A stretch of 64,000 nt of DNA from an uncultured Erysipelotrichaceae bacterium. GTDB taxonomy: Bacteria; Bacillota_I; Bacilli_A; RF39; UBA660. Numbering within the stretch: position 1 is the first letter of the stretch; every line of letters starts with the position of its first letter. Positions 4,976 to 64,000 of this stretch are shown piece by piece. Below the pieces are notes generated by a model. That model worked only from the letters and a program-made list of their open reading frames with translations, did no database searches and had not been told where the DNA came from. Where the stretch lies: NCBI GenBank assembly GCA_902780395.1, contig CACZFH010000005.1:1557-65556 (forward strand). Reading direction: 5' to 3'. A program made the translations under genes and the position numbers.

Positions 4976-5671
4976 CTAATGTAATTTTTGAAGAAATATT
5001 TTTAATTTTTCTAATTTTAAACTTAGTCCCCCTAACAAATATCCGTCAATTGCTCCTATTTGCTTTAACTGTTCAATATTTTCTTCGTTGGCACTACCAC
5101 CATAGAGTATTTTAGATTTTGGAACTATTTTCTTTATTTCTGCAAATACTTCTTCTATTTGTTCATTAGTTGGAATAATTCCTGTTCCTATAGACCAAAT
5201 AGGTTCATAAGCAACTATGATTTTTTTCTTGTCTTCTTCTTTGATATCTTTAATTGCTATAGATAGTTCTTCTTTTAATACTTCTTTTACTTGATTGTTT
5301 TCTCTTTCTTTTAGAGATTCTCCTATACATAAAATGGGAGTTATATCATTTTTTAATAATTGCTTTATTTTTAAATTAATCTCTTCATTGGTTTCTCTTT
5401 GATATTCTCTTCTTTCACTATGTCCTACTATAGCATATTGTACATTGTATGATTTTAGTTGAGTAGCAGATATTTCTCCAGTATAAGCTCCATTTTCATT
5501 TATACTTACATTTTGGGAACCTATTTTTAAAGAGGAATTTGCTGCTCCTATATTTAGATAAGTGGGACATAATATGATAGTTTCTTCTGTGCTAATAGAT
5601 TCTAATCCTTTTATATATGATTCAAATTCTATTTTTTCTAAATTACTCTTATTATTTAAAGCAATAATCAT
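4976..5671 (-). CDS. tpiA: Triosephosphate isomerase
   Basis: GHSERR and AYEPIWSIGTG catalytic motifs; 231 aa. Its start overlaps the stop of the upstream glycosyltransferase gene by 4 nt. Confidence 0.9.
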   Translation of the reverse strand: MIIALNNKSNLEKIEFESYIKGLESISTEETIILCPTYLNIGAANSSLKIGSQNVSINENGAYTGEISATQLKSYNVQYAIVGHSERREYQRETNEEINLKIKQLLKNDITPILCIGESLKERENNQVKEVLKEELSIAIKDIKEEDKKKIIVAYEPIWSIGTGIIPTNEQIEEVFAEIKKIVPKSKILYGGSANEENIEQLKQIGAIDGYLLGGLSLKLEKLKIFLQKLH

Positions 5672-6903
5672 TTTAATCTCTCCTTTATTGTTTTTATTAT
5701 CTTTGAGAATATTCCGTACCTATTTTCTTCTTTCTTTTCTTTTATGGCTCTATTATATACTTCTAATACTCTCTCTCCATAGTATTTAGAACTATATGTT
5801 TCAGCTTGGATACGAGCTTGTTTGTCAAATTTTTCTAATTCTTTTGGATTATTATAAAGACGCATTATATGATCTACATATTCTTTTTCAGTTTCAAAAA
5901 ATAAACCATCTAGTTCTTCTGTTACCATACTGGAAAATGCTTCATCTCTCATACAGACAGGAACTACGTTTGAAGCCATAGCTTCTATAATAGTTAATCC
6001 TTGAGTTTCTGTTTTAGAAGCAGTTACAAAAATGTCTGCTAAATGATAATAATAAGGCATATCTTCCCAAGCTGTTTTGCCTGTAAAGATAATATTATCA
6101 GCTAATCCCAATGATTCAGCATCTTTTTCATATTTCTCTTTATCGGGGCCATCTCCAACTATTAATAATTTAATATTATTATTCTGTTCTTTAAGCTTTT
6201 TCTCCGCTCTTATTAAAAATTCAATATTCTTTTCTTTGGCTAATCTTCCTACAAATAATAATATAAAATCATCCTTGTCAATATTAAGAGTTTTTCTTAA
6301 TTCTTTCAATTCATTATTATCAATGTTTTCATCATAGAATCTTTCTACTTCTATACCTGTTGGAATGATATTTATGTTCTTTTCAAATTTGTATTTTTCT
6401 TTAAATAGCTTATAAGTTTTATTAGTAGGCACTATTAATTCTGTTGCTGTTGTTTCACAATAGAATTTCGTAAAATACTCAAGTAATTTTTTACTTGATC
6501 TTTCAAAATATCCTTTTGTAATGTAATAAATATAGTCTTCATACATTGTATGATAGGTGTGTACTAATGGAATATTATATTGCTTGGCAAATAATCTAGC
6601 AAATGTTCCAATAGCAAATTCTGTTTGAGAATGAATAACATCTAAGTTCCAACTCTTGATTTTATTTACTGCTCTAACTGGATATATACTGCTTAATCTA
6701 GAATCATAAATACCTGTTGGAATTCCTGGTATTTTTAATACTCTTTCTTTCTCATCATAATCATATTTAAAACTTTCTAGATTTGCTGTTACGACGTACA
6801 CTTCATGGCCTTGCTTTTCTAAAGCTTTTTTTAACATTATTTCGCTTGTTACTAAACCACTGATATAAGGAGTATAGGTTTCTGTAAAAATACCAATTCT
6901 CAT
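5668..6903 (-). CDS. GT4-family glycosyltransferase, diacylglycerol glycosyltransferase-like
   Basis: 411 aa. N-terminal MRIGIFTETYTPYISG and C-terminal TETQGLTIIEAMAS (E-x7-E region) are typical of GT4 glycolipid synthases (alMGS/CpoA-like). Confidence 0.75.
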   Translation of the reverse strand: MRIGIFTETYTPYISGLVTSEIMLKKALEKQGHEVYVVTANLESFKYDYDEKERVLKIPGIPTGIYDSRLSSIYPVRAVNKIKSWNLDVIHSQTEFAIGTFARLFAKQYNIPLVHTYHTMYEDYIYYITKGYFERSSKKLLEYFTKFYCETTATELIVPTNKTYKLFKEKYKFEKNINIIPTGIEVERFYDENIDNNELKELRKTLNIDKDDFILLFVGRLAKEKNIEFLIRAEKKLKEQNNNIKLLIVGDGPDKEKYEKDAESLGLADNIIFTGKTAWEDMPYYYHLADIFVTASKTETQGLTIIEAMASNVVPVCMRDEAFSSMVTEELDGLFFETEKEYVDHIMRLYNNPKELEKFDKQARIQAETYSSKYYGERVLEVYNRAIKEKKEENRYGIFSKIIKTIKERLK

Positions 6904-7901
6904 TCTTTCACCTTCTTATCTATATTAAATAGGATTCCTCCGATGATCATACCTAAATAATAAGTTATAAATCTCCATATTAATAAGACTGCTGATAATT
7001 GTGTCTTTTCAATGAAGTTACCAAAAAATTGAGTAAAACCATATTCAATTCCACCACTAGCTCCTGGGATTGGAACGAAAGCTCCTATGACATAAACATA
7101 GGCAGATGCCGTTATCGTATTAATTGCTGTTAAACTATTAAAGTTCCTCATACTATATAAAATCCATAAAGGAGTCATATATAAACATAATAAGCTAGCT
7201 ATATTTAAAACAATACCTGTTACTAATAGATTCTTTCTTTTCTTCAATTCTTTAAAACCGTTATAGTAATCTTCCAGTTTATTTTCTATGTCTTCTTTTG
7301 TTGTTTTAATTTTCATTTTTTTAGCAATGAATAATCCTATCTTACTTAATCTTTTCATCATAGATTTTGAATAAGATATTAATAATAATATAATTACAAC
7401 TGCTATATTGATAGCAAAACCTAATAATAACAGTTTTTGTAATAGTTTCACTTTAGGAAAGATATGAAATAATAAATTATACAGTACTGCTATAGTTCCA
7501 CATATTACTAAGGCAATTTGATAAAATATAAAACTTTGAATAGTTTGATTGGTAGCCTTAGTTAAAGAAAAACCATGTTCTGTTAGCATATAAACTTCCA
7601 TTGGTTGGCCACCTGTTGCAAAAGGGGTTACTCCATTAAAAAATTGAGTAATCCAAATATGTTTAATAGCTTCTTTTAAGCTATACTTTTCAGGATTATT
7701 GGCTATTTTATAATTGACATATCCCTTTAATGATAAGGAAATTGCAAAAAATACGAAAGCTACTAATATAAACTTCGTATCTATTGTTTGAAATATTTTA
7801 ATAATATCTCCTAAATCATCTTTTAGGACTATGAATAATACAAGAATTGTAATCAATATTAATACTATTGTATTTTTCTTTATATTTTTAGCAATATTCA
7901 T
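6900..7901 (-). CDS. Flippase-like membrane protein (LPG_synthase_TM / UPF0104 type)
   Basis: 333 aa with about 8 TM helices. It resembles the lysylphosphatidylglycerol-synthase TM-region family often paired with glycolipid GTs. 4-nt overlaps with both neighbours. Confidence 0.65.
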   Translation of the reverse strand: MNIAKNIKKNTIVLILITILVLFIVLKDDLGDIIKIFQTIDTKFILVAFVFFAISLSLKGYVNYKIANNPEKYSLKEAIKHIWITQFFNGVTPFATGGQPMEVYMLTEHGFSLTKATNQTIQSFIFYQIALVICGTIAVLYNLLFHIFPKVKLLQKLLLLGFAINIAVVIILLLISYSKSMMKRLSKIGLFIAKKMKIKTTKEDIENKLEDYYNGFKELKKRKNLLVTGIVLNIASLLCLYMTPLWILYSMRNFNSLTAINTITASAYVYVIGAFVPIPGASGGIEYGFTQFFGNFIEKTQLSAVLLIWRFITYYLGMIIGGILFNIDKKVKE

Positions 7902-8407
7902 GCAATCATCCTTTTATTTATTATTCTTTCTTCTTGTTCTGTTAAAAACAATATGTTACCTTGCTCTTCTCCTAAGCATTCATATCCGTTCTGTTTTAAG
8001 TATGCTATTGTTTCTTTATCTGTTGGATCAATCATAATAAAAACTTCTTCTAGGTTTAAAGTGTTTAAGGCATAATTAATTGCCAAAGAAACAATTTTTC
8101 TTCTTTTAGTAATTCCTTTTTGGGGAGATAAAGATATTCTTCCTGTCTTCATATCTTTTTCTCCTTGAATTAAGCAACTATCTATCATTGTTGCGTCTTT
8201 TTCAAGAAATAGTCTTTCTTCTATTTCATTTCTATTTTTTTTGTTCTTTAAGTATTCCTCTTCAGGGATAGATGAAACCATTTGTTTTAATTGTTCTGAT
8301 AGATTTGTTGACATTTCATTTGTTTTTTCATATTCTTTTAGCATTTGAATATGAGTATCATTATAAGGATTTACTACGTATAAACTTGATACGGACAATT
8401 TGTTCAC
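7898..8407 (-). CDS. Possible degenerate GNAT-fold protein
   Basis: 169 aa. The C-terminal half (RRKIVSLAINYALNTLNLEEVFIMIDPTDKETIAYLKQNGYE) resembles RimJ/RimL-type acetyltransferases. The match is weak. Confidence 0.35.
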   Translation of the reverse strand: MNKLSVSSLYVVNPYNDTHIQMLKEYEKTNEMSTNLSEQLKQMVSSIPEEEYLKNKKNRNEIEERLFLEKDATMIDSCLIQGEKDMKTGRISLSPQKGITKRRKIVSLAINYALNTLNLEEVFIMIDPTDKETIAYLKQNGYECLGEEQGNILFLTEQEERIINKRMIA

Positions 8408-8413
8408 CTTCTT

Positions 8414-9586
8414 TTATTTTAATGATTCAATTCCAGGTAATGTCTTTCCTTCAAGATATTCAAGAGTTGCTCCTCCACCTGTTGAAGCATGGTATACTTT
8501 TTCTTTATAACCAGCTTTAGTAGCTGCTGCTACAATATCTCCTCCACCTAAAATGGTTTTGATATTATTCTCAACTATGTATTTTAATAATTCATCTGTA
8601 TTCTTTTTATATTTTTCAAATTCATAAACTCCTAAAGGTCCATTCCAAACAACAATTTTAGCAGTATTTAGAATTTCTTCAAATAACTCTTTCGTACGAG
8701 TACCAATATCTAATCCCATTTCGTTAGAAGCTATTTCATTAATATCTTTTTCTCGATAATCTTCATCATTGGTGTATTCATTGGTAACTGCTACATCTAT
8801 TGGAAGAACTATTTTTTTAGGATATTCTTGAAGAATATTCTTACAGAATTCAATGTTTTCTTCATCTAGTAAAGATTTTCCTATTTCTTTTCCCTGGGCT
8901 TTTAAGAATGTGAATGCCATTCCTCCACCAATTAGTATTTTGTCTGCTTTCTTTACTAGGTTTTCTATAACGCCTATTTTATCGCTTACTTTGGCTCCAC
9001 CTAAAATAACGACAAATGGATGCTCTGGATTATCTAATTCTTTAAGAGCATTTAATTCTCGTTCAATTAAAAATCCTGGTGCAGATGGTAGATGAGAAGC
9101 TATACCACAGTTTGAAGCGTGGGCTCTATGGATTGTTCCAAAAGCATCATTTATAAATACTTCTCCTAAAGATGCCCAATAAGCACCTAGTTCTTCATCA
9201 TTACTACTTTCTTTTTTACCATCTAAATCTTCATATCTGGTATTTTGAACAAGAATTACATCTCCACCTTCCATGCTATCAACTAAGCTTTCTAATTCTG
9301 GTCCTCTTGTTTTTTCACAGAATAAAACATCTTTTTTTAATAATTCACTTAAGCGCTTTGCTACTGGTGATAAATCATTTTTAGCTAAATCGGCTTCTTC
9401 TTTTACTCTTCCCAAATGAGATAGTAGTATTACTTTAGCATTTTTCTCAAGACAATAATTAATGGTTTCTAAGGCTGCTACTATTCTGGTATCATCTACT
9501 ATTTTCCCTTCTTTCATTGGAACATTAAAATCACAACGAATTATTACTTTTTTATTTTCAATATTTAAATCTTTCAATTGTTTCAT
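8414..9586 (-). CDS. pgk: Phosphoglycerate kinase
   Basis: 390 aa. KVILLSHLGRVK, GGGMAFTFLKAQG and GGGDIVAA are canonical PGK motifs. Confidence 0.95.
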   Translation of the reverse strand: MKQLKDLNIENKKVIIRCDFNVPMKEGKIVDDTRIVAALETINYCLEKNAKVILLSHLGRVKEEADLAKNDLSPVAKRLSELLKKDVLFCEKTRGPELESLVDSMEGGDVILVQNTRYEDLDGKKESSNDEELGAYWASLGEVFINDAFGTIHRAHASNCGIASHLPSAPGFLIERELNALKELDNPEHPFVVILGGAKVSDKIGVIENLVKKADKILIGGGMAFTFLKAQGKEIGKSLLDEENIEFCKNILQEYPKKIVLPIDVAVTNEYTNDEDYREKDINEIASNEMGLDIGTRTKELFEEILNTAKIVVWNGPLGVYEFEKYKKNTDELLKYIVENNIKTILGGGDIVAAATKAGYKEKVYHASTGGGATLEYLEGKTLPGIESLK

Positions 9587-9610
9587 GGCTAAATTCTCCT
9601 AACTATTAAA

Positions 9611-9619
9611 ATTATACCA
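9611..9619 (-). promoter_or_regulatory. Extended -10 promoter (TGgTATAAT) for pgk
   Basis: The minus strand reads aaaaaTGGTATAATtttaatagttAGGAGAatttagccATG. It lies between the upstream terminator and the pgk RBS. Confidence 0.45.
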
Positions 9620-9670
9620 TTTTTTTTAAATTTTAAAAAGAGAAAGCATATTTTTTATTATTATATTATT

Positions 9671-9703
9671 AAAAGAAAAAAAGAGTATTGTCAACAATAC
9701 TCT
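9671..9703 (-). terminator. Rho-independent terminator after gap-SPFH unit
   Basis: Minus strand: AGAGTATTG-TTGA-CAATACTCT followed by TTTTTTTCTTTT. Confidence 0.75.
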
Positions 9704-9840
9704 AATAATGATTAATCTATTAAGAAATTAAACAATTCACTTCTTCTTTTTTATTGGCTATATCATACCATAATATTTAGAAAAACAAGCTAGTTTCTTG
9801 CTATGGTATTATTAGATATAAAAAAAGAAAATAACAAATG

Positions 9841-10608
9841 TTATCTGTTATTTTCATTTTCAAATCTTTTACTCAATCCTTCTACTGCTTTTAATACTTC
9901 GATTGGTATAGCAAAAATAATTGTATTTGATTGATCAGAACTTAAATCATTTAATGTAGATAATGTTCTTAAATGAAGTGCTCCTGGAGTAGAACCCATG
10001 GTGTTAGCAGCTTGAGCTAGGCTATTAGCAGCTTCAACTTCACCTGCAGCTTTAGTAAGAATAGCTTGTTTTTCTCTTTCTGCTTCAGCAGCTTTAGCAA
10101 TGACTCTCTTCATTTCTTCTGGTAAGCTTACGTCTTTTAACTCAACGTTTTCTACTTTGATTCCCCATGGATCAGTAGCGGCATCTATAACTTGACATAT
10201 ACCATTAGAAATTTTTTCTCTTTCACTTAATAATTCATCTAATGTTACAGATCCTACTACATTACGCATTGTAGTTTGAGCAAGTTGGCTTACTGCATAG
10301 TAATAATCTTGTACTTCACAAATTGCTTTTCCTGCATCAAAGATTTTATAATAAATTACTGCATTGATTCTAATAGAAACATTATCTTTGGTAATTGTTT
10401 CTTGTTCTGGAACATCTACAGCTTTTGTTCTGATGTCCACTTTTCTAAATGATTGAATTACTGGTAATACTATTTTCCATCCTGGGGTTAATACTTTAGT
10501 ATATTTACCAAATGTAAATAATATTCCTCTTTCATATTCATTTATTTGTTTAATTGATCCAAGAAGTATACATGCAACGATGAATAATAAAAACACTAAA
10601 CCACTCAT
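9841..10608 (-). CDS. SPFH/band-7 (stomatin/prohibitin-like) membrane protein
   Basis: 255 aa. N-terminal TM helix, then a band-7 core and a C-terminal AEAEREKQA coiled region. Confidence 0.85.
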   Translation of the reverse strand: MSGLVFLLFIVACILLGSIKQINEYERGILFTFGKYTKVLTPGWKIVLPVIQSFRKVDIRTKAVDVPEQETITKDNVSIRINAVIYYKIFDAGKAICEVQDYYYAVSQLAQTTMRNVVGSVTLDELLSEREKISNGICQVIDAATDPWGIKVENVELKDVSLPEEMKRVIAKAAEAEREKQAILTKAAGEVEAANSLAQAANTMGSTPGALHLRTLSTLNDLSSDQSNTIIFAIPIEVLKAVEGLSKRFENENNR

Positions 10609-10612
10609 TTTT

Positions 10613-11623
10613 TTATTCTCCTACTTTCATTAAAAATTTGGCAGTTCTAACCATTTGAGCTGTATAACTCATTTCATTGTCATACCATGAAACAACTTTT
10701 ACTAATTGTTTTCCATCTACTTCTAAGACACTGGTTGATAATCCATCTACTAAAGATCCACAACGTCTACCAATTACGTCACTTGATACAATTGGGTCCA
10801 TTGTAAACTCTAGGGTTTCATTAGTATGATCTTGCAATACTTTATTGATTTCTTCTACAGTTGTATTCTTTCCTAATTCTAGGGTTAAGTCAACAACTGA
10901 GCCAGTTGGAACTGGAACTCTCATAGCTGTTCCATCAAGTTTTCCAGCTAAGTTAGGGCATACTAGTCCAATAGCAGATGCTGCTCCGGTAGAAGCTGGT
11001 ACAATATTAGCTGCACATGCTCTACCGCGTCTTGCTAAATGACCTTTTTTATGAGCAATATCTAGAGAAGCTTGGTCATTTGTATATGCATGAACTGTTG
11101 TCATATATCCTTTTACAATTCCAAATTCTTTGTCTAATACATCTACTACTGGAGCTAAACAGTTTGTTGTACATGAAGCTGCGGAAATAATCTTTTCACT
11201 TCCATCTAAAATGTTATGATTTACATTATATACAACTGTTTTTAAATCTCCTTTAGCAGGTGCTGATATAATAACGTGTTTTGCTCCGGCATTGATATGT
11301 GCCATGGCTTTTTCATCACTAGTAAATAAACCTGTACATTCAAATACTACATCAATGTCCAAGTCTTTCCATGGTAATAAAGCTGGATCTTTTTCAGCAT
11401 ATACCTTTACTCTTCTTTCTCCCACTACGATGTATTCACCATCAGCATGAATTTCATCGATTCGATAATTTCTATGATTTGTATCATATTTTAATAAATA
11501 AGCAAGTTGTTCTGCATCTGTTAAATCATTTACAGCAACTACTTCAAATTCTGGACTTTCTTCCATTAATCTAAAGCATAGTCTTCCGATTCTTCCGAAT
11601 CCATTAATTGCAACTCTTATCAT
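10613..11623 (-). CDS. gap: Glyceraldehyde-3-phosphate dehydrogenase
   Basis: INGFGRIGR NAD-binding motif, ASCTTNCLAP active site, WYDNEMSY; 336 aa. Confidence 0.95.
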   Translation of the reverse strand: MIRVAINGFGRIGRLCFRLMEESPEFEVVAVNDLTDAEQLAYLLKYDTNHRNYRIDEIHADGEYIVVGERRVKVYAEKDPALLPWKDLDIDVVFECTGLFTSDEKAMAHINAGAKHVIISAPAKGDLKTVVYNVNHNILDGSEKIISAASCTTNCLAPVVDVLDKEFGIVKGYMTTVHAYTNDQASLDIAHKKGHLARRGRACAANIVPASTGAASAIGLVCPNLAGKLDGTAMRVPVPTGSVVDLTLELGKNTTVEEINKVLQDHTNETLEFTMDPIVSSDVIGRRCGSLVDGLSTSVLEVDGKQLVKVVSWYDNEMSYTAQMVRTAKFLMKVGE

Positions 11624-31292: not shown

Positions 31293-32394
31293 TTACTTCC
31301 CCTTTTTTAAATTACTTTCTATAAAAATGTCTATTTCTCCATCTAATACTTTGGATACATTGCTTGTTTCCACATTTGTTCTATGATCTTTTACCATAGA
31401 ATATGGATGTAATACATAACTTCTTATTTGAGAGCCAAATTCTATATTAGCTTGATCTCCTTTAATACCTTTCAATTCTTGCTCTTGTTCTTCAATCTTT
31501 TTTAATAATAATTTATTTTTTAATACTTTTAAGGCTTGCTCTTTATTTTGTATTTGGCTTCTTTCGTTTTGACATGTAACTACTATTTTGCTTGGTATAT
31601 GGGTAATTCGAACAGCTGAGTCTGTAGTATTAACTCCTTGGCCTCCGGCTCCTGTTGAACGGTATACATCTATTTTTAAATCTTTTTCATCTATTTCTAT
31701 AGTGGTATCTTGTTCTATTTCTGGGGTTACTTCAACTGAGGCAAAAGAAGTATGTCTTCTGTTATTGGAATCAAAAGGAGACAATCTTACTAGCCTATGA
31801 ACACCTTTTTCATTTTTTAGATATCCATAAGCATTTAATCCTTTTACTTGGATGGATACACTTTTAATTCCTGCTTCTTCTCCTTCTTGATAATCTAGTA
31901 ATGTTACTTTGTATTTCTTCTTTTCACACCAACGAAGATACATTCTATAAAGCATACTAGCCCAGTCACAAGATTCTGTTCCTCCGGCTCCTGGATGAAT
32001 ATCTACAATACAATTATTTTTATCATAAGGTCCAGATAATAATACTAATAATTTTAATTCACTTAAATCTTTTTCTATTGTTTTTGTATTATCTTCTATT
32101 TCTTTTAATATTGTTTCATCTGGTTCTGTTACCATTAAAGCTATCATTTCTTTATTAGTTGCTATATCTTGATTTAATGATTCTACTTGATTAACTAGTT
32201 CTTTTAGATTATTTAGTTCTAGTAAGACTTCTTCACTTTTATTGTGATCATTCCAAAAGTCTGGTTTTTCGGTTATTTCTTGAAGATTCTTAATTCTTTC
32301 TATTTTTTTAGGAAAGTCAAAGTGACCTCCTAAGCTCATTTATTTCTTTTTCAAATGATTCTAACATTCTATTTACTTCTTTAATATCTATCAT
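31293..32394 (-). CDS. prfB: Peptide chain release factor 2, expressed via programmed +1 frameshift
   Basis: Frame 0 runs 32394..32320 (MIDIKEVNRMLESFEKEINELRRSL) and stops at TGA 32317-32319. The +1 frame continues DFPKKIERIK... to 31293. SPF (RLSPFDS) and GGQ (GAGGQGVNT) motifs are present. The track shows only 31293..32339. Confidence 0.9.
32316..32331 (-). promoter_or_regulatory. RF2 autoregulatory +1 frameshift site
   Basis: AGGAGG (32326-32331, internal SD-like), then TCA, then CTT TGA C (32316-32322). This has the same geometry as the E. coli AGGGGG-UAU-CUU-UGA-C cassette. Confidence 0.85.
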
Positions 32395-58760: not shown

Positions 58761-58933
58761 TGTATCACCTGTAACAATTGTACCATAGATTTTTAATAAT
58801 ATTATATTTATATAATTAAAATGGCTTCAAATGAGAGAAAAATATCTATACTCTTTTTTTAATGTTATTGTTTTAGAAACTTCTTTATATTTAGAGAATA
58901 ATAATTTTTCACTATTTATCACTAATCATTATA

Positions 58934-58970
58934 GCTGGTGGTATCTAATTTTCTTTTTTAATACTTTTTC
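58934..58970. repeat. Conserved intergenic element, copy E1
   Basis: GCTGGTGGTATCTAAttttCTTTTTTAATACTTTTTC. Matches E2 at 14/15 and 19/20 positions. About 105 bp upstream of the predicted -35 (TTGAAG, 58825-58830) of the 184-aa gene. Confidence 0.7.
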
Positions 58971-59127
58971 TTCTAAATATCTATTTTATTCTTCGTCAAA
59001 TTGATTAATTCTTAATTCTTCATATAATACTTTTATAATTTTTTGCAATTTTTGTTCATCCATAAAATCACCTATTATTAAATAGTTTTAACATATATTT
59101 TCTTTTTATCTTTGTTAATGAAAGCAA

Positions 59128-60141
59128 TTAGCTTACCTCAACATAATTTTCATCATACTTTTCATAGATATAAGATGTTTGATTACTTCCCTTAATATGA
59201 TAAAAATTACATATCTCCGTATTTTTCAAGCAAGCTTTAGTCACTGTATAAACTATAGAGTCAGAAGACTTAACAGTCCCATCTATATTCAAAGTAAAAC
59301 GATCTAGAATAACAGGATTAACAAAATCTAACCTATCATCCGAATCTGTAAAGTATGTTTCAAGATTAAAATTTCTATAGACTATTGGTTTTTCTCCCGC
59401 CATAAAAGAATTCTTACGATGTGCAAAAACATAATGCCCTTTTTTATCATAATGAATGATTTTTATAACTTGAGTCTTCGTTGTGATAATTTGATTATGT
59501 TTATTATATGAATACTTTTCTTTATATTGCTTGTCTTCATTGCTTGAATACATATAGCCATCATCTTTAAAGACAATATCTCCCTCTGCTGGTTGAAAAT
59601 TAGAAAAAGAAACATTAACAAACTCAGGATAAGAAACAGATTTAGTTAAATAAAAACCATAACCTATAAAAATTAAGGATACACTCAATATAACAAAAAC
59701 TATTTTATAAGAAAAAGAAATATGACAATCTTCTTTCTTTTTTTTCTGGAACAAAATTACTAACAAATAAATCGCAATGATATTAGCAAAAATAAGCAAT
59801 ATGCAGATAAAATCTTTCATATATTGCTTAAAAGATAATAAATTAATAACTAATAATCCTATTACTGGTGAAAAAGTACTAAGAATAGCTAAAATCGACA
59901 CAATATTTTTATCTTTTGTAAGTGCATCCACACTAACTGCAAAAGACCATAAGAAAATAGGAATTGCAAAAATAAAAAAGTAGATATAAAACAAAAATAA
60001 TAAAGAATAAAAAAAATCCGTACCTTCAAAGAAAATACCTAATAAAATAAATAATATAGGAGTTAACCCTAAAATAATTCCTAATATTCCCTTTTCTTTA
60101 CTCTCCTTTACTAGTTCTGATTTAGCTTTTTCTGGATTCAT
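59128..60141 (-). CDS. Membrane protein with C-terminal soluble domain
   Basis: 337 aa. About 6 TM helices in the first 170 aa, then a beta-rich domain. No family recognised. Confidence 0.55.
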   Translation of the reverse strand: MNPEKAKSELVKESKEKGILGIILGLTPILFILLGIFFEGTDFFYSLLFLFYIYFFIFAIPIFLWSFAVSVDALTKDKNIVSILAILSTFSPVIGLLVINLLSFKQYMKDFICILLIFANIIAIYLLVILFQKKKKEDCHISFSYKIVFVILSVSLIFIGYGFYLTKSVSYPEFVNVSFSNFQPAEGDIVFKDDGYMYSSNEDKQYKEKYSYNKHNQIITTKTQVIKIIHYDKKGHYVFAHRKNSFMAGEKPIVYRNFNLETYFTDSDDRLDFVNPVILDRFTLNIDGTVKSSDSIVYTVTKACLKNTEICNFYHIKGSNQTSYIYEKYDENYVEVS

Positions 60142-60156
60142 ATCAACACCTTCTTT

Positions 60157-60450
60157 TTATTCATATTCATAAATAGTATTTTTATTATACACAATGACCT
60201 GAGGAACTTTTCCTTTAGAGAACTCTACAAATGTATCCGTAATTTCTCCTTGAACATAATCATGTAATTGTTGGATAATTAATGCTTCTACCTCATTAGA
60301 TGTAATAGCTTCTTGTCCCTCTTCAGCCAAAATATTTACTTTATTTTCATATATTTTTAAATCTTTTGTTATCTGGTATTTTTCATAGTTTTTAGAAGAG
60401 ATACTAATATTAACCATTTTAGATTTAGGAACGATTGTTAAATTATCCAT
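60157..60450 (-). CDS. Small soluble protein upstream of the membrane protein
   Basis: Track ORF is 60157..60459. ATG 60450 follows an AAGGTG RBS. 97 aa. Promoter ATGACA-18-TATAAT with a TG extension at about 60490-60518. Confidence 0.5.
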   Translation of the reverse strand: MDNLTIVPKSKMVNISISSKNYEKYQITKDLKIYENKVNILAEEGQEAITSNEVEALIIQQLHDYVQGEITDTFVEFSKGKVPQVIVYNKNTIYEYE

Positions 60451-60616
60451 TTTTAACACCTTGTTTTTAGTTTTACTTCTAATTTAATTATATCATATTT
60501 TTGGAATTGCTGTCATGAACTATTATGCGTTTAAGTTTGGCACTTTTTCGTCAATGGTTTTGTTAAATCATTATACTTTCTCTCTTTTATTATTTCTTTT
60601 TCACTTCTTATCCATG

Positions 60617-60680
60617 GCTGATGGTATCTAAAAAGGTATCTAAAATACTTTTTTAATGCTTTTTCGCAATTTTTTAGTAA
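60617..60680. repeat. Conserved intergenic element, copy E2
   Basis: GCTGATGGTATCTAAAAAGGTATCTAAAATACTTTTTTAATGCTTTTTCGCAATTTTTTAGTAA. Two direct GGTATCTAAAA units 12 bp apart. About 105 bp upstream of the -35 of the 97-aa/337-aa operon. Confidence 0.7.
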
Positions 60681-60684
60681 GTTT

Positions 60685-61608
60685 TTATATTTGTCCATTA
60701 TATTTATACAATTTTTTTACTATTGGTGAATATTCTACTTTTGATAAATCTTTTGACTTTTTTTCAGCAATATACTTTGTTAAATACATACTTTGTATAA
60801 GCATCTGGTAATCATTTAATATTTGATCTTCAAATTTTGAATCAATAATGACAATTCTACTATAATAATGTTTTAGTTCCTCTAACATCATTCTATCAAA
60901 TTCAGTATTCCTATTATAATAAATTGCTATACCATTATAATTAATACCAAGTGTACTTCTTCCATGGCAATAAGAATACTTATCATGAACTATTGGTATT
61001 CCAATTCCAGATTCAACCATAGTTGATTCTAAGTATTTTGATGCTGTGCTTGTATCATAGCCACTAAATATTTCATAGACGTCACTTTCTAAATCAAAAT
61101 TGAATGGTGATTCTTCTATACAATCTAATATTAGACTATCTTGTCCATTCAAATAATAATTTATTAATATACTTACTGGAATTAATGTTGCACCAAGTGA
61201 TATAAAACTTCTTTCTTTATCAATAGTAGTATTATATTTTAAATATGTTACATCACTATCATCAAACGAATTATTGGATAGCAAATATTTTCTCAATCCT
61301 TTTAAAAATGATAATTCTACTTCATAATTATTTCCACTATAGCTACATGCTACTACATTTCTAAATGTGTCATTATTTCGATATAAAAAATCTCTTGGTT
61401 CACTATTTATTGAAATGATACCATTTTTAGCATTAATAACCTTAGCTCCAAATTCACTTACTACACTTGATCCTCCAACACCACTAAATAATGTTGGCTC
61501 ATCCAATTTAGATAATTCATTTCTAATAAACTCTAAATCAGTATTATCTAATGAATCAACTACCCTTTCTTTTAAAAAATCAAAATTTGTTTTCATGTCC
61601 TTTTCCAT
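60685..61608 (-). CDS. Hypothetical protein partnered with WYL regulator (weak SIS-like G-x-G-x-S motif)
   Basis: Track ORF is 60685..61626. ATG 61608 follows an AGGAGA RBS. 307 aa. LFSGVGGSSVVSEFGAKV loosely recalls a SIS phosphosugar-binding loop. Otherwise an orphan. Confidence 0.5.
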   Translation of the reverse strand: MEKDMKTNFDFLKERVVDSLDNTDLEFIRNELSKLDEPTLFSGVGGSSVVSEFGAKVINAKNGIISINSEPRDFLYRNNDTFRNVVACSYSGNNYEVELSFLKGLRKYLLSNNSFDDSDVTYLKYNTTIDKERSFISLGATLIPVSILINYYLNGQDSLILDCIEESPFNFDLESDVYEIFSGYDTSTASKYLESTMVESGIGIPIVHDKYSYCHGRSTLGINYNGIAIYYNRNTEFDRMMLEELKHYYSRIVIIDSKFEDQILNDYQMLIQSMYLTKYIAEKKSKDLSKVEYSPIVKKLYKYNGQI

Positions 61609-61660
61609 AAAAAAATCTCCTTTCAAGTTAAATATAACTCAAAAGGAGGAAGTATTTCGT

Positions 61661-62263
61661 CTACTCATACTTTTCATTTAATAATTCATATTTTATTATT
61701 CTCTTTAACTCAAAATGTCTAATGTCTTGCTTCTTTTCACAAAATGCTGCGCAATACCAACCATATTGAAATAAAAACATTTCTGCTGGATCTATTACTC
61801 TTTCGTTTTCACCTTTACCATAAGAGTAATATAATATTTTAACTTTCCTCTTTTCTTTTATAGCTCTTGTTAATAAATTATATTTCTTATCTGTTTCATC
61901 TTTTAAATTTAATTCCTTTTCTTCTTGTTTACTTCCTATATATACACCTTTAATTTTATCTTGAAGCAGTATAAGTTCATCTTTTATGTCTTTAGCTTTT
62001 TCATTAGCAATATATCTATCTAATAATTTGGCATCTTTCATTTTGAATTTTCTAACAGGCATACGAACTGATTGGTTTAATACATATCCACCATATGGTC
62101 CCATTATTGTATCAATGTATATTCCTGCTTTTTCTAAATCTTCTTTATATGCTCTAATCATTCTCTCAGAAACTTCAAGTTTATTAGAAAGTTCATTTAT
62201 GCTATATTTTCTTCCGGACTGTAATAACTGGAGCATCGTTAATACGTTGGATATTTTAGACAT
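61661..62263 (-). CDS. WYL-domain transcriptional regulator (HTH + WYL)
   Basis: Track start is 62305; ATG 62263 follows a GGTGG RBS. N-terminal HTH (NVLTMLQLLQSGRKYSINELSNKLEVSERMIRAYKEDL) and a C-terminal WYL-type segment (VIDPAEMFLFQYGWYCAAFCEKKQDIRHFELKRI). Confidence 0.8.
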   Translation of the reverse strand: MSKISNVLTMLQLLQSGRKYSINELSNKLEVSERMIRAYKEDLEKAGIYIDTIMGPYGGYVLNQSVRMPVRKFKMKDAKLLDRYIANEKAKDIKDELILLQDKIKGVYIGSKQEEKELNLKDETDKKYNLLTRAIKEKRKVKILYYSYGKGENERVIDPAEMFLFQYGWYCAAFCEKKQDIRHFELKRIIKYELLNEKYE

Positions 62264-62307
62264 AAAACCACCCATATAAATTATATCACATTTTTTATCT
62301 TTCAAAA

Positions 62308-62366
62308 ATACCTATGAAAGGGTATCTAAAGTGAAATTTTAGTAATTTTTCGCAATTTTTTAGCAA
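62308..62366. repeat. Conserved intergenic element, copy E3
   Basis: ATACC-N8-GGTATCTAAAGTGAAATTTTAGTAATTTTTCGCAATTTTTTAGCAA. Shares GGTATCTAAA (10/10) and TTTTTCGCAATTTTTTAG (18/18) with E2. Abuts the TGaTATAAT promoter (62280-62288) of the WYL gene. Confidence 0.7.
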
Positions 62367-62413
62367 AGAAAAAACTTGCTTTTCCCTCCCTTATTTTATG
62401 CCGGTTTGCGAGT

Positions 62414-62554
62414 TTATTTGCCGTAGCACTGCTTATATTTCTTGCCCGATCCACATGCGGGCCAAATTAGTATATTATCCATACTTATAATATTATGAGT
62501 ATTTCCTTTATTTTCAAGGGTTTGTGGACAGGTAACTTTTTGTATTTTAAATAT
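62414..62554 (-). pseudogene. Relic encoding a degenerate SEC-C metal-binding motif
   Basis: The minus frame reads ...SMDNILIWPACGSGKKYKQCYGK* (stop 62414-62416). Compare the SEC-C consensus CPCGSGKKYKxCCG. Two of the four Zn ligands are lost, there is no RBS, and only 46 open codons remain. This accounts for the locally GC-rich patch. Confidence 0.4.
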
Positions 62555-62561
62555 TCATCTA

Positions 62562-62583
62562 ATGTGCACAAAATGTGCACAAA
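62562..62583. promoter_or_regulatory. Perfect tandem duplication of an 11-mer containing the palindrome TGTGCACA
   Basis: ATGTGCACAAA ATGTGCACAAA. Each unit holds an 8-bp palindrome. Located in the intergenic region between the HNH-like gene and the WYL locus. Confidence 0.35.
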
Positions 62584-62660
62584 TTTCTAGCATATCCTAT
62601 TTTTCTTTGTCACATACATTGTATTATAGATAGTATAAATAATCAATAATATTGATTTGA

Positions 62661-63265: not shown

Positions 63266-63991
63266 TTATTTGTTTATTGTTTTAATTATCTCTTCACCAT
63301 GAGTTTTAATCTTAATTGCTGTTAGTATATTAGCATTTTTAAGTTCTTCAACTGTTTTAGGCCTCAATTCAACTAATTTATCTAATTCTTCATTTGTAAA
63401 TACATAGTACGCAGGAATATTCATTTCATTTGATCTGTTTTTTCTAAATTCAATTAATTTATCTTTTAAATCATCTTTTATTGAAATACTAATATTATTG
63501 CAATATTTTTCTTTGTAATAATCATAATAGTTAATTTCCTCCTTAGCAGATAAATCAACATATGATTGAGCCATTTCTTCCATACCTTTTTTAGATTCAA
63601 GATATTCATCATTACCTCTATGATCTATATCATATTCAATTTGTCTAATTAAAGCATCTGCTCTTAGTATTTTATATTTCATCTCTTTTGGAGCTCTGTT
63701 TGTGTTTAATATAGTATCTTGATTAGCTGCTACAACCAATATTCTTCTATAATAATCAAAATTCTTTGAGGCAAAGAACTTCTTAATAGCTGACGAATTG
63801 CTTTCCCATATTTTTCTAATTACTTCTCTTTGAGCCTCAACTTGCCTTAAAGGAGAATACATTCCCTTTTTTATCTTCTTACCATTAATACTAAATTCTC
63901 TAATAAAATCTCCTTTATCAGTTACAGTGATATTACCAACCAAATTTTTGCATTCAACATAATAAGTATATACTGGAGTAATAATTACATG
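63266..63991 (-). CDS. NERD-domain protein with C-terminal HRDC-like helical domain; N-terminus interrupted at window edge
   Basis: The frame is open from 63991 (HVIITPVYTYYVECKNLVGNITV is the NERD core, cf. viE.Kn..G.i). It is preceded by an in-frame TAG at 63992-63994. The C-terminus IEFRKNRSNEMNIPAYYVFTNEELDKLVELRPKTVEELKN is HRDC-like. Confidence 0.6.
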   Translation of the reverse strand, partial: HVIITPVYTYYVECKNLVGNITVTDKGDFIREFSINGKKIKKGMYSPLRQVEAQREVIRKIWESNSSAIKKFFASKNFDYYRRILVVAANQDTILNTNRAPKEMKYKILRADALIRQIEYDIDHRGNDEYLESKKGMEEMAQSYVDLSAKEEINYYDYYKEKYCNNISISIKDDLKDKLIEFRKNRSNEMNIPAYYVFTNEELDKLVELRPKTVEELKNANILTAIKIKTHGEEIIKTINK

Positions 63992-64000
63992 CTATTTCAT

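Follow-up and report, generated by a model that had tools for sequence, protein, structure and literature searches.

This analysis concerns a window of 64,000 nucleotides from an uncultured Erysipelotrichaceae bacterium (contig CACZFH010000005.1, assembly GCA_902780395.1) and three copies of a conserved element in it, E1, E2, and E3, which lie between small consecutive gene units that include a gene for a WYL-domain regulator. The elements are best explained, with a probability of about three in four, as the arm regions of attachment (att)-type junctions between small cassettes in an island that was built at the 3' end of secA. An earlier, sequence-only reading of the same DNA had favored a shared operator and had named cassette boundaries or recombination sites as an alternative. 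It is this alternative that is supported by the geometry of the sites, the pairing of arms within cassettes, the swapping of cassettes between strains, and the junctions of a prophage, all of which were observed directly, as was the sequence family itself.

According to the proposed mechanism, an incoming element would carry a three-part attP site consisting of a P arm, a core, and a P' arm. The P arm would contain repeated TTAGATAnn sites ~100–140 nt from the core, the core would copy the last ~13 codons of secA (the SEC-C motif), and the P' arm would combine a secA-type terminator with an A/T-rich box, one or two sites of the TTAGATAnn type, and a promoter that points outward. Strand exchange by a tyrosine integrase would take place at the core (around CATGTGG), either in the real secA gene or in any displaced copy of its end. 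Since the element supplies a new secA end, secA would remain intact while the old end is pushed downstream, and repeated rounds would generate arrays in which cargo, P arm, core, P' arm, and the next cargo follow one another. In the window, E3 would be the P' arm and promoter in front of a cassette with the WYL gene and a gene for a 307-aa protein, E2 would be the P arm of this WYL cassette with the core and the next P' arm deleted, and E1 would be a more eroded P arm behind the unit that encodes a 97-aa and a 337-aa protein. The integrases probably bind TTAGATAnn as arm-type sites, cassettes without an integrase gene may be moved in trans, and the decayed junctions at E1 and E2 are presumably inactive scars now.

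The element family and its position at secA ends

All genes of the region are located on the minus strand and, read in this sense, the element consists of the box CTAAAAAATTGCGAAAAA, ~20 nt of spacer, TTTAGATACC once or twice in a 12-bp phase, and then (c)tCAGCTA. E1, E2, and E3 are located where the sequence-only reading had placed them and all carry TTAGATACC sites, but the limits given there were too short, as the homology of E2 reaches 60527 and that of E1 extends to ~58905. E3 contains the box at 62346-62363 and a single TTTAGATACC site at 62321-62330, E2 contains the box at 60660-60677 and two TTTAGATACC sites at 60623-60644, and E1 retains one TTAGATACC site at 58940-58948 together with the conserved stretch CAGCTATAATGATTAGTGATAAATAGTGAAAAA at 58905-58937 (~33 nt of arm). 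The 18-mer shared by E2 and E3 (TTTTTCGCAATTTTTTAG) is identical in both elements, as had been claimed, and these are its two exact matches in the window (0.86 matches are expected when up to three mismatches are allowed). Exact GGTATCTAAA occurs three times, always within E2 or E3, and the form of the site in E1 is GGTATCTAAT with one mismatch. A repeat search aligned E2 with E3 over 50 nt (80% identity) and E1 with E2 over 31 nt (87% identity). The second block of similarity between E1 and E2 matches at 17 of 18 positions over CTTTTTTAATRCTTTTTC and not at 19 of 20. The half-site alone, with one mismatch allowed, is not enriched in the window (12 found versus 8 expected). The GGTATCT half-site forms a 12-bp direct repeat in E2 and the inverted repeat ATACC-N8-GGTAT is present in E3, both as described. 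The repeats of E1 and E2 are direct only and include no inverted repeats, and the repeat search found no extended inverted repeat across any of the three elements. Rfam and tRNA scans of the window gave no matches; a structured RNA in the G+C-richer stretch after the sites was considered and proved to be a copy of the secA end with synonymous codon changes.

Searched alone against genome contigs, the 18-mer returned 102 single matches in unrelated taxa, which represent chance in A/T-rich DNA. The exact tandem TTTAGATACCTTTTTAGATACC was found in 55 genome stretches, all from metagenome-assembled genomes (MAGs) of gut Bacilli-like bacteria, and secA is its most common neighbor (21 loci), flanked by hpf on the upstream side and prfB on the downstream side. 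At real secA genes, a terminator hairpin comes after the SEC-C-motif end, and the box and TTAGATACC sites lie beyond it. Other copies display a different order: two TTAGATACC sites, ~110–130 nt, a fragment of the secA end that lacks a long reading frame, the terminator, and again the box and sites. These displaced cores maintain the peptide through synonymous changes (including Ser codons AGT, TCC, and TCG), indicating that they derive from functional secA ends and were once under selection as coding sequence.

The geometry was quantified in 1.5 Mb of loci fetched from related genomes (L-numbers below refer to these loci). A total of 143 SEC-C cores were identified, 32 in long secA frames and 111 as displaced fragments. 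A TTAGATA site is present within 300 nt upstream of a single real secA core (1 of 32) and of 78 of the 111 displaced cores, with a peak at 100–140 nt. Downstream of the stop codon, 22 of the real cores carry a site within 300 nt (mostly at 20–100 nt), as do 64 of the displaced cores (peak at 40–100 nt). Among the loci fetched with the tandem, 81 of 123 tandem sites are located at arm distance from a strict core match, and the motifs are confined to 58.9–62.4 kb in the window; the scatter over unrelated intergenic regions that is typical of a dispersed (MITE/REP-like) repeat was not seen in the window or in these loci.

The three elements of the window can be placed within this geometry. E1 and E2 align with the P arms of L139, L197, and L199; those copies continue into the core, and E2 stops at 60527 (...AAACGC), exactly where intact copies run on into the CATGTGG core. 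The comparison suggests that the core, the terminator, and the next P' arm have been deleted at E2. E3-type arms directly follow the real secA in L090 and L201, and the TTTAGATACC site of E3 is located 84 nt past the stop codon of the displaced core next to it, within the peak at 40–100 nt. This core is the sole SEC-C match in the window. The remnant of a terminator between core and E3 appears, by its homology, to travel together with the core; the copy in L201 folds with -15 kcal/mol and the window copy folds no better than shuffled sequences (z = -0.37). On the other side of the core, a tandem TGTGCACAT TT TGTGCACAT at 62562-62581 (minus strand) is located 112–123 nt upstream, and each unit contains the palindrome GTGCAC. 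Four copies of TGTGCACAT directly follow the real secA in L139, as do TGTGCACA sites, and the tandem looks like the arm-site type of another cassette family.

Many real secA genes (in L229, L222, L225, L091, and L103) are directly followed by a palindrome of 2 + 2(3) sites, ~80–140 nt after the secA stop codon, TTTAGATACC TT TTTGGATACC ttccgctga GTATCTAAAAGGTATCTAGATACC, which is followed by a ~150-nt conserved stretch with GTGTCCAGTGCCAAAATGACA.

Cassettes, strains, and prophage junctions

When a cassette is defined as the DNA between two consecutive cores, the fetched loci contain 64 distinct cassettes of 0.7–4.5 kb (median ~1.45 kb), most of them with a single gene, and up to ~7 junctions are found within 11 kb (L107). 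In 44 of 51 cassettes, the TAGATAnn suffix of the P' arm is identical to that of the P arm, compared with 23 ± 2.5 matches after shuffling, and none of 2000 shuffles reached 44. Neighboring cassettes alternate in arm type (e.g., CC, CG, CC, AG in L196), and other repeated arm motifs are found at the same distance from the core: TGTGCACAT in the window and in L139, and TTGTTTGTAAA beside the integrase gene of L201. The same cassette is located between different neighbors on both sides in all three genome pairs that could be assessed. The cargo proteins of the window have no matches in the other fetched loci except for one weak match to the NERD-HRDC protein. On L231, a contig from a viral catalogue, a full set of type I restriction-modification genes (R, M, and S; 5621-10707) is located just before a CC-type junction with a secA-end core, showing that defence genes travel in these units.

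Contigs of other strains of the window's species were identified through identical 197-aa, 337-aa, and 307-aa proteins (an exact look-up of the WYL protein matched no contig), and one of these contigs is 99.7% identical to the window. The TGTGCACAT P arm and the first part of the core are common to all strain contigs, which differ from there on. The core is followed by the E3 arm and the WYL cassette in the window, L237, and L244, by a PLD gene and others in L239, and by a palindromic CC-type arm with a NUDIX gene and others in L240. The window and L240 are identical through catgtggatcggg inside the core and divergent beyond. Cassettes are thus swapped between strains, as a cassette-boundary reading implies, and the breakpoint lies inside the secA-end core at or near 62445-62457 (CATGTGGATCGGG). 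On the upstream side, a radical-SAM gene replaces the NERD-HRDC gene and the 197-aa gene before the same P arm in L244, where the homology to the window begins at GTGACAAAG. No strain variants were found at the E2 or E1 junction among the contigs with identical proteins.

Integrase genes adjoin the junctions in L232, L250, L251, L252, L201, L189, and L131, and integrase fragments are found between core and WYL gene in four further loci (L104, L108, L110, and L120). On the viral contig L232, cargo and a CC-type P arm precede the core, which is followed in turn by a terminator, two TTAGATAAG sites, a tyrosine integrase gene, an S24 repressor gene, and a cro-like gene; the two sites are ~60 nt from the integrase stop codon. 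The integrase of L232 is 99% identical in three MAGs (L250, L251, and L252). The junction of this prophage, CATGT/GGGAGTGGTCGC (CATGT/GGG), was located four times: the phage-derived GGGAGTGGTCGCAAGTTCAAGCAATGTTGTGGTAAATAA continues from the CATGT of two distinct real secA genes in L250 and L252 (779-aa frames) and from that of two distinct displaced cores in L251 and L232. One prophage therefore meets four different left flanks at the same nucleotide, and it supplies the ending GSGRKFKQCCGK plus stop codon to two real secA genes. The integrase of L201 contains Arm-DNA-bind_4, SAM_3, and catalytic domains, and its gene directly follows a displaced core with its own repeated arm motif.

Objections and alternative explanations

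Several observations weigh against att-type junctions. The role of TTAGATACC as an arm site is putative, as would be any role of the 18-nt box. The visible part of the island in the window contains no integrase gene, and most cassettes in relatives also lack one. Attempts to locate the other end (attR, the right end) of the mapped prophage were unsuccessful, and a full attP with matching arms is putative; a search of viral contigs for AG-type tandems returned the known left ends and 51 chance matches without cores. Furthermore, secA is absent within ~10 kb upstream in the best-matching strain contig, where an IS110-family transposase gene and a heavy-metal ATPase gene are found instead (L237, 4839-6041), so that the array is either anchored on a displaced core or has moved. 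Homologous recombination at the conserved cores could also produce the swapping between strains, and a regulator could additionally use the TTAGATACC sites. As a separate observation, prfB, which usually closes the variable region between secA and prfB in relatives, is located 26 kb away from the array (31305-32267, minus strand), and the locus may have been rearranged in this species.

A passive origin, in which duplication and homologous recombination dispersed an intergenic repeat of this lineage along with fragments of secA ends, and no dedicated recombinase or binding protein took part, is unlikely. It would account for the many cassettes without an integrase, for breakpoints in sequence that all copies share and at which homologous recombination is possible, and for the erosion of many copies, including E1 and E2. 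However, the distance between sites and core is fixed on both sides, the site variants are matched within a cassette and alternate between neighbors, and other arm types have their own repeated motifs (TGTGCACAT and TTGTTTGTAAA) at the same distance. Integrase genes that abut cores and the single prophage joined at one nucleotide to four left flanks also count against passive spread.

It is quite unlikely that the box and the TTAGATACC sites are bound by a transcription factor of the host or of the cassettes that controls the outward promoters, and that the sites are merely carried by mobile DNA. The sites of P' arms are located directly upstream of a conserved promoter, and the 2 + 2 palindrome that often follows real secA genes resembles an operator. 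The P-arm copies (E1 and E2), however, are located downstream of cargo and upstream of a terminator-bearing core rather than at promoters, and the pairing of arms by variant fits the ends of a recombining unit rather than promoters.

The shared operator of the sequence-only reading, by which the WYL protein would bind the GGTATCT sites in E1, E2, and E3 and co-regulate three consecutive units as one regulon, did not hold up and is very unlikely. E3 does adjoin the WYL promoter, ~30 nt upstream of the -10 box, and contains a short inverted repeat; Pfam identifies a WYL and an HTH_11 domain in the protein, and helix-turn-helix (HTH) WYL regulators of defence islands (BrxR/CapW family) autoregulate via sites upstream of their own genes. 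The comparison of relatives argues against such an operator. Relatives of the WYL protein were found at 80 loci (up to 96% identity) in MAGs of uncultured gut Bacilli, Tenericutes, and Erysipelotrichaceae, and only 9 of 79 loci, or 9 of 33 where the protein is at least 80% identical, carry a TAGATACC-like site in the 200 nt that precede the WYL gene; the remaining loci have unrelated upstream DNA. The WYL gene and the 307-aa gene form a two-gene module that is conserved in ~70 loci (species-level genomes) and breaks at both ends. The DNA homology of the module to the window extends from the -10 box of the WYL gene (~62288) to the stop codon of the 307-aa gene (~60685), limits that lie exactly between E3 and E2; synteny with the orthologues stops at E2 on one side and directly before the -10 box on the other. 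Conversely, the exact tandem is present in 57 loci and a WYL gene lies in the fetched stretch of only three of these (L107, L139, and L207, the latter two on the same contig), so that more than 50 loci have the tandem but lack a WYL gene in the DNA that was fetched.

The inverted half of E3 is also not kept among orthologous arms, where it reads GGTAT, GGTGT, GGATAT, GTCAT, or GTTGT, so the dyad is not conserved. The outward promoter of the P' arm (TTTTTGAAAGATAAAAAATATGATATAAT) precedes the WYL gene in the window, and the same arm and promoter precede unrelated genes in L090 and L223. E1 and E2 are located behind the stop codon of the preceding gene, as P arms would be. The ~105 bp reported between E2 and the -35 box of the next unit was confirmed (107 nt, with the -35 box at 60511-60516), and this spacing at E1 and E2 is explained by the normal arm length from the sites to a core that is now missing. 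The BrxR/CapW-type regulators resemble the situation in the window in that a variable gene cluster begins with the gene for an HTH-WYL protein, but here the repeats do not accompany the WYL gene and are accounted for as arms of junctions, and no known defence system was recognised next to this gene (PADLOC, PHROGs, and NCBIfam scans). In more distant relatives, a Ham1/ITPase-family gene comes next in the same operon (e.g., L179, 8001-10181).

The idea that the repeats are themselves coding, for a leader peptide or another small protein such as that of a 55-aa frame across E2 (60531-60698) whose ATG overlaps the stop codon of the 307-aa gene and for which E1 to E3 give similar peptides (LLKNCEK.LKK.FRY), has a probability close to nil and was rejected because the frame is not conserved: orthologous copies in L105, L107, and L139, and many others of the family, have it interrupted or displaced. 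It also has no family matches.

Related systems and features of the island

The putative att-type junctions at the secA end share several properties with the att sites of phage lambda: a short core common to element and target, an integrase with an arm-binding N-terminal domain (L201), and an integrase gene beside the P' arm in the prophage. The spacing of ~100–140 nt on one side of the core and 40–100 nt on the other resembles the layout of the arm sites in lambda attP. Unlike in lambda, integration would target secA at its SEC-C-coding end, single-gene cassettes of 1–3 kb without an integrase make up most of the units, an additional A/T-rich box is conserved, and the arm sites are putative.

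Accretion of elements in tandem at the 3' ends of genes is known from the ssrA islands of Dehalococcoides (PMC3146451) and has been reviewed for integrative and mobilizable elements (PMC5704250). The arrays of cis-mobilizable elements (CIMEs) as well as integrative and conjugative elements (ICEs) at fda in Streptococcus thermophilus and the islands at tRNA and tmRNA genes are similar in that the target gene regains its end from the element, a displaced 3' fragment remains after every insertion, the elements form arrays separated by att repeats, and there are derivatives without an integrase between att sites. They differ from the cassettes described here, which are unusually small and numerous and form a pattern that recurs across many uncultured species of gut Bacilli. 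The literature that could be searched contained no description of secA as an attachment site.

Integron arrays likewise consist of mostly single-gene cassettes on the same strand that are separated by recombination sites and differ in content between strains. In contrast to integrons, the junctions at secA ends are arm-core-arm units that contain a fragment of a protein gene and lack an imperfect hairpin of the attC type, neither an IntI-type integrase nor an attI platform was seen, and the P' arm provides every cassette with a promoter of its own.

A broader proposal, which is tentative and somewhat short of an even chance, is that uncultured gut Bacilli maintain an integron-like system that is based on lambda-type att sites. 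Hundreds of promoter-bearing, mostly single-gene micro-cassettes of 1–3 kb without integrase genes and with matched arm types (TTAGATA-CC, -CG, -AG, -CA, and others) would be moved in trans by integrases of phages and islands into the SEC-C-coding end of secA and its displaced copies. This would enable a lineage-wide exchange of defence, toxin, and accessory genes, and the WYL and 307-aa gene pair would be one circulating cassette.

The analysis replaces an attractive but unsupported regulon model with a testable recombination model and singles out the SEC-C-coding end of secA as a target for integration, at the copies of which little-known gut bacteria keep a dense and fast-changing array of tiny cassettes. 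If the cassettes do move in trans, they would represent a second route, besides integrons, to the exchange of single-gene cassettes, and the junctions would be a practical marker for accessory and defence genes in MAGs, the assemblies of which are also broken by these repeats.

The features of the island in the window are listed in table 1.

Table 1. Features of the island in the window, in minus-strand order (assignments to arms and cassettes are putative)
Feature	Position	Strand	Remarks
P arm of upstream cassette (NERD-HRDC and 197-aa genes)	62459..62613	-	Two TGTGCACAT sites at 62562-62570 and 62573-62581
Displaced secA 3' end (core)	62414..62458	-	Short secA-end peptide; long reading frame upstream absent
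Eroded remnant of secA terminator hairpin	62369..62413	-	Homologous to DNA after real secA in L201, L090, and L192
E3	62308..62366	-	Site-bearing part of left (P') arm of WYL cassette
Extended -10 box (TGTGATATAAT)	62280..62290	-	Predicted outward promoter at inner end of P' arm; WYL gene downstream
WYL cassette cargo	60685..62263	-	WYL regulator gene 61661-62263 and 307-aa gene 60685-61608
E2 (extended)	60527..60690	-	Right (P) arm of WYL cassette; alignment with P arms of other genomes
Promoter-like site ATGACA-18-TATAAT with TG	60487..60516	-	Directly after truncated P arm; top-scoring of region
Cargo of next unit: 97/100-aa gene and 337-aa membrane-protein gene	59128..60459	-	Family matches found for neither
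E1	58905..58970	-	Eroded right (P) arm; core not following
Last cargo gene of array, 184 aa	58206..58760	-	Weak match to papain-fold glutamine deamidase toxin

Among the cargo proteins, the 307-aa protein has a weak match to phosphoglucose-isomerase SIS models, and the match of the 184-aa protein is to Pfam PF15644 (E = 0.0039, under the curated cut-off). A 25-aa frame (MDEQKLQKIIKVLYEELRINQFDEE, then a stop codon) with a plausible ribosome-binding site is located between the 337-aa gene and E1 (58986-59063, minus strand) and holds a box-like stretch (59030-59053) that is 87% identical to the box region of E3. At the end of the window, a 225-aa "HRDC" frame (63266-64000, minus strand) represents the C-terminal two thirds of the 332-aa NERD-HRDC gene, which the window boundary truncates. 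In its final ~10 bases, the window does not match ERZ913632 scaffold_328, the contig that is otherwise 99.7% identical to it. The 197-aa gene beside the NERD-HRDC gene encodes an SAV1803-related protein.

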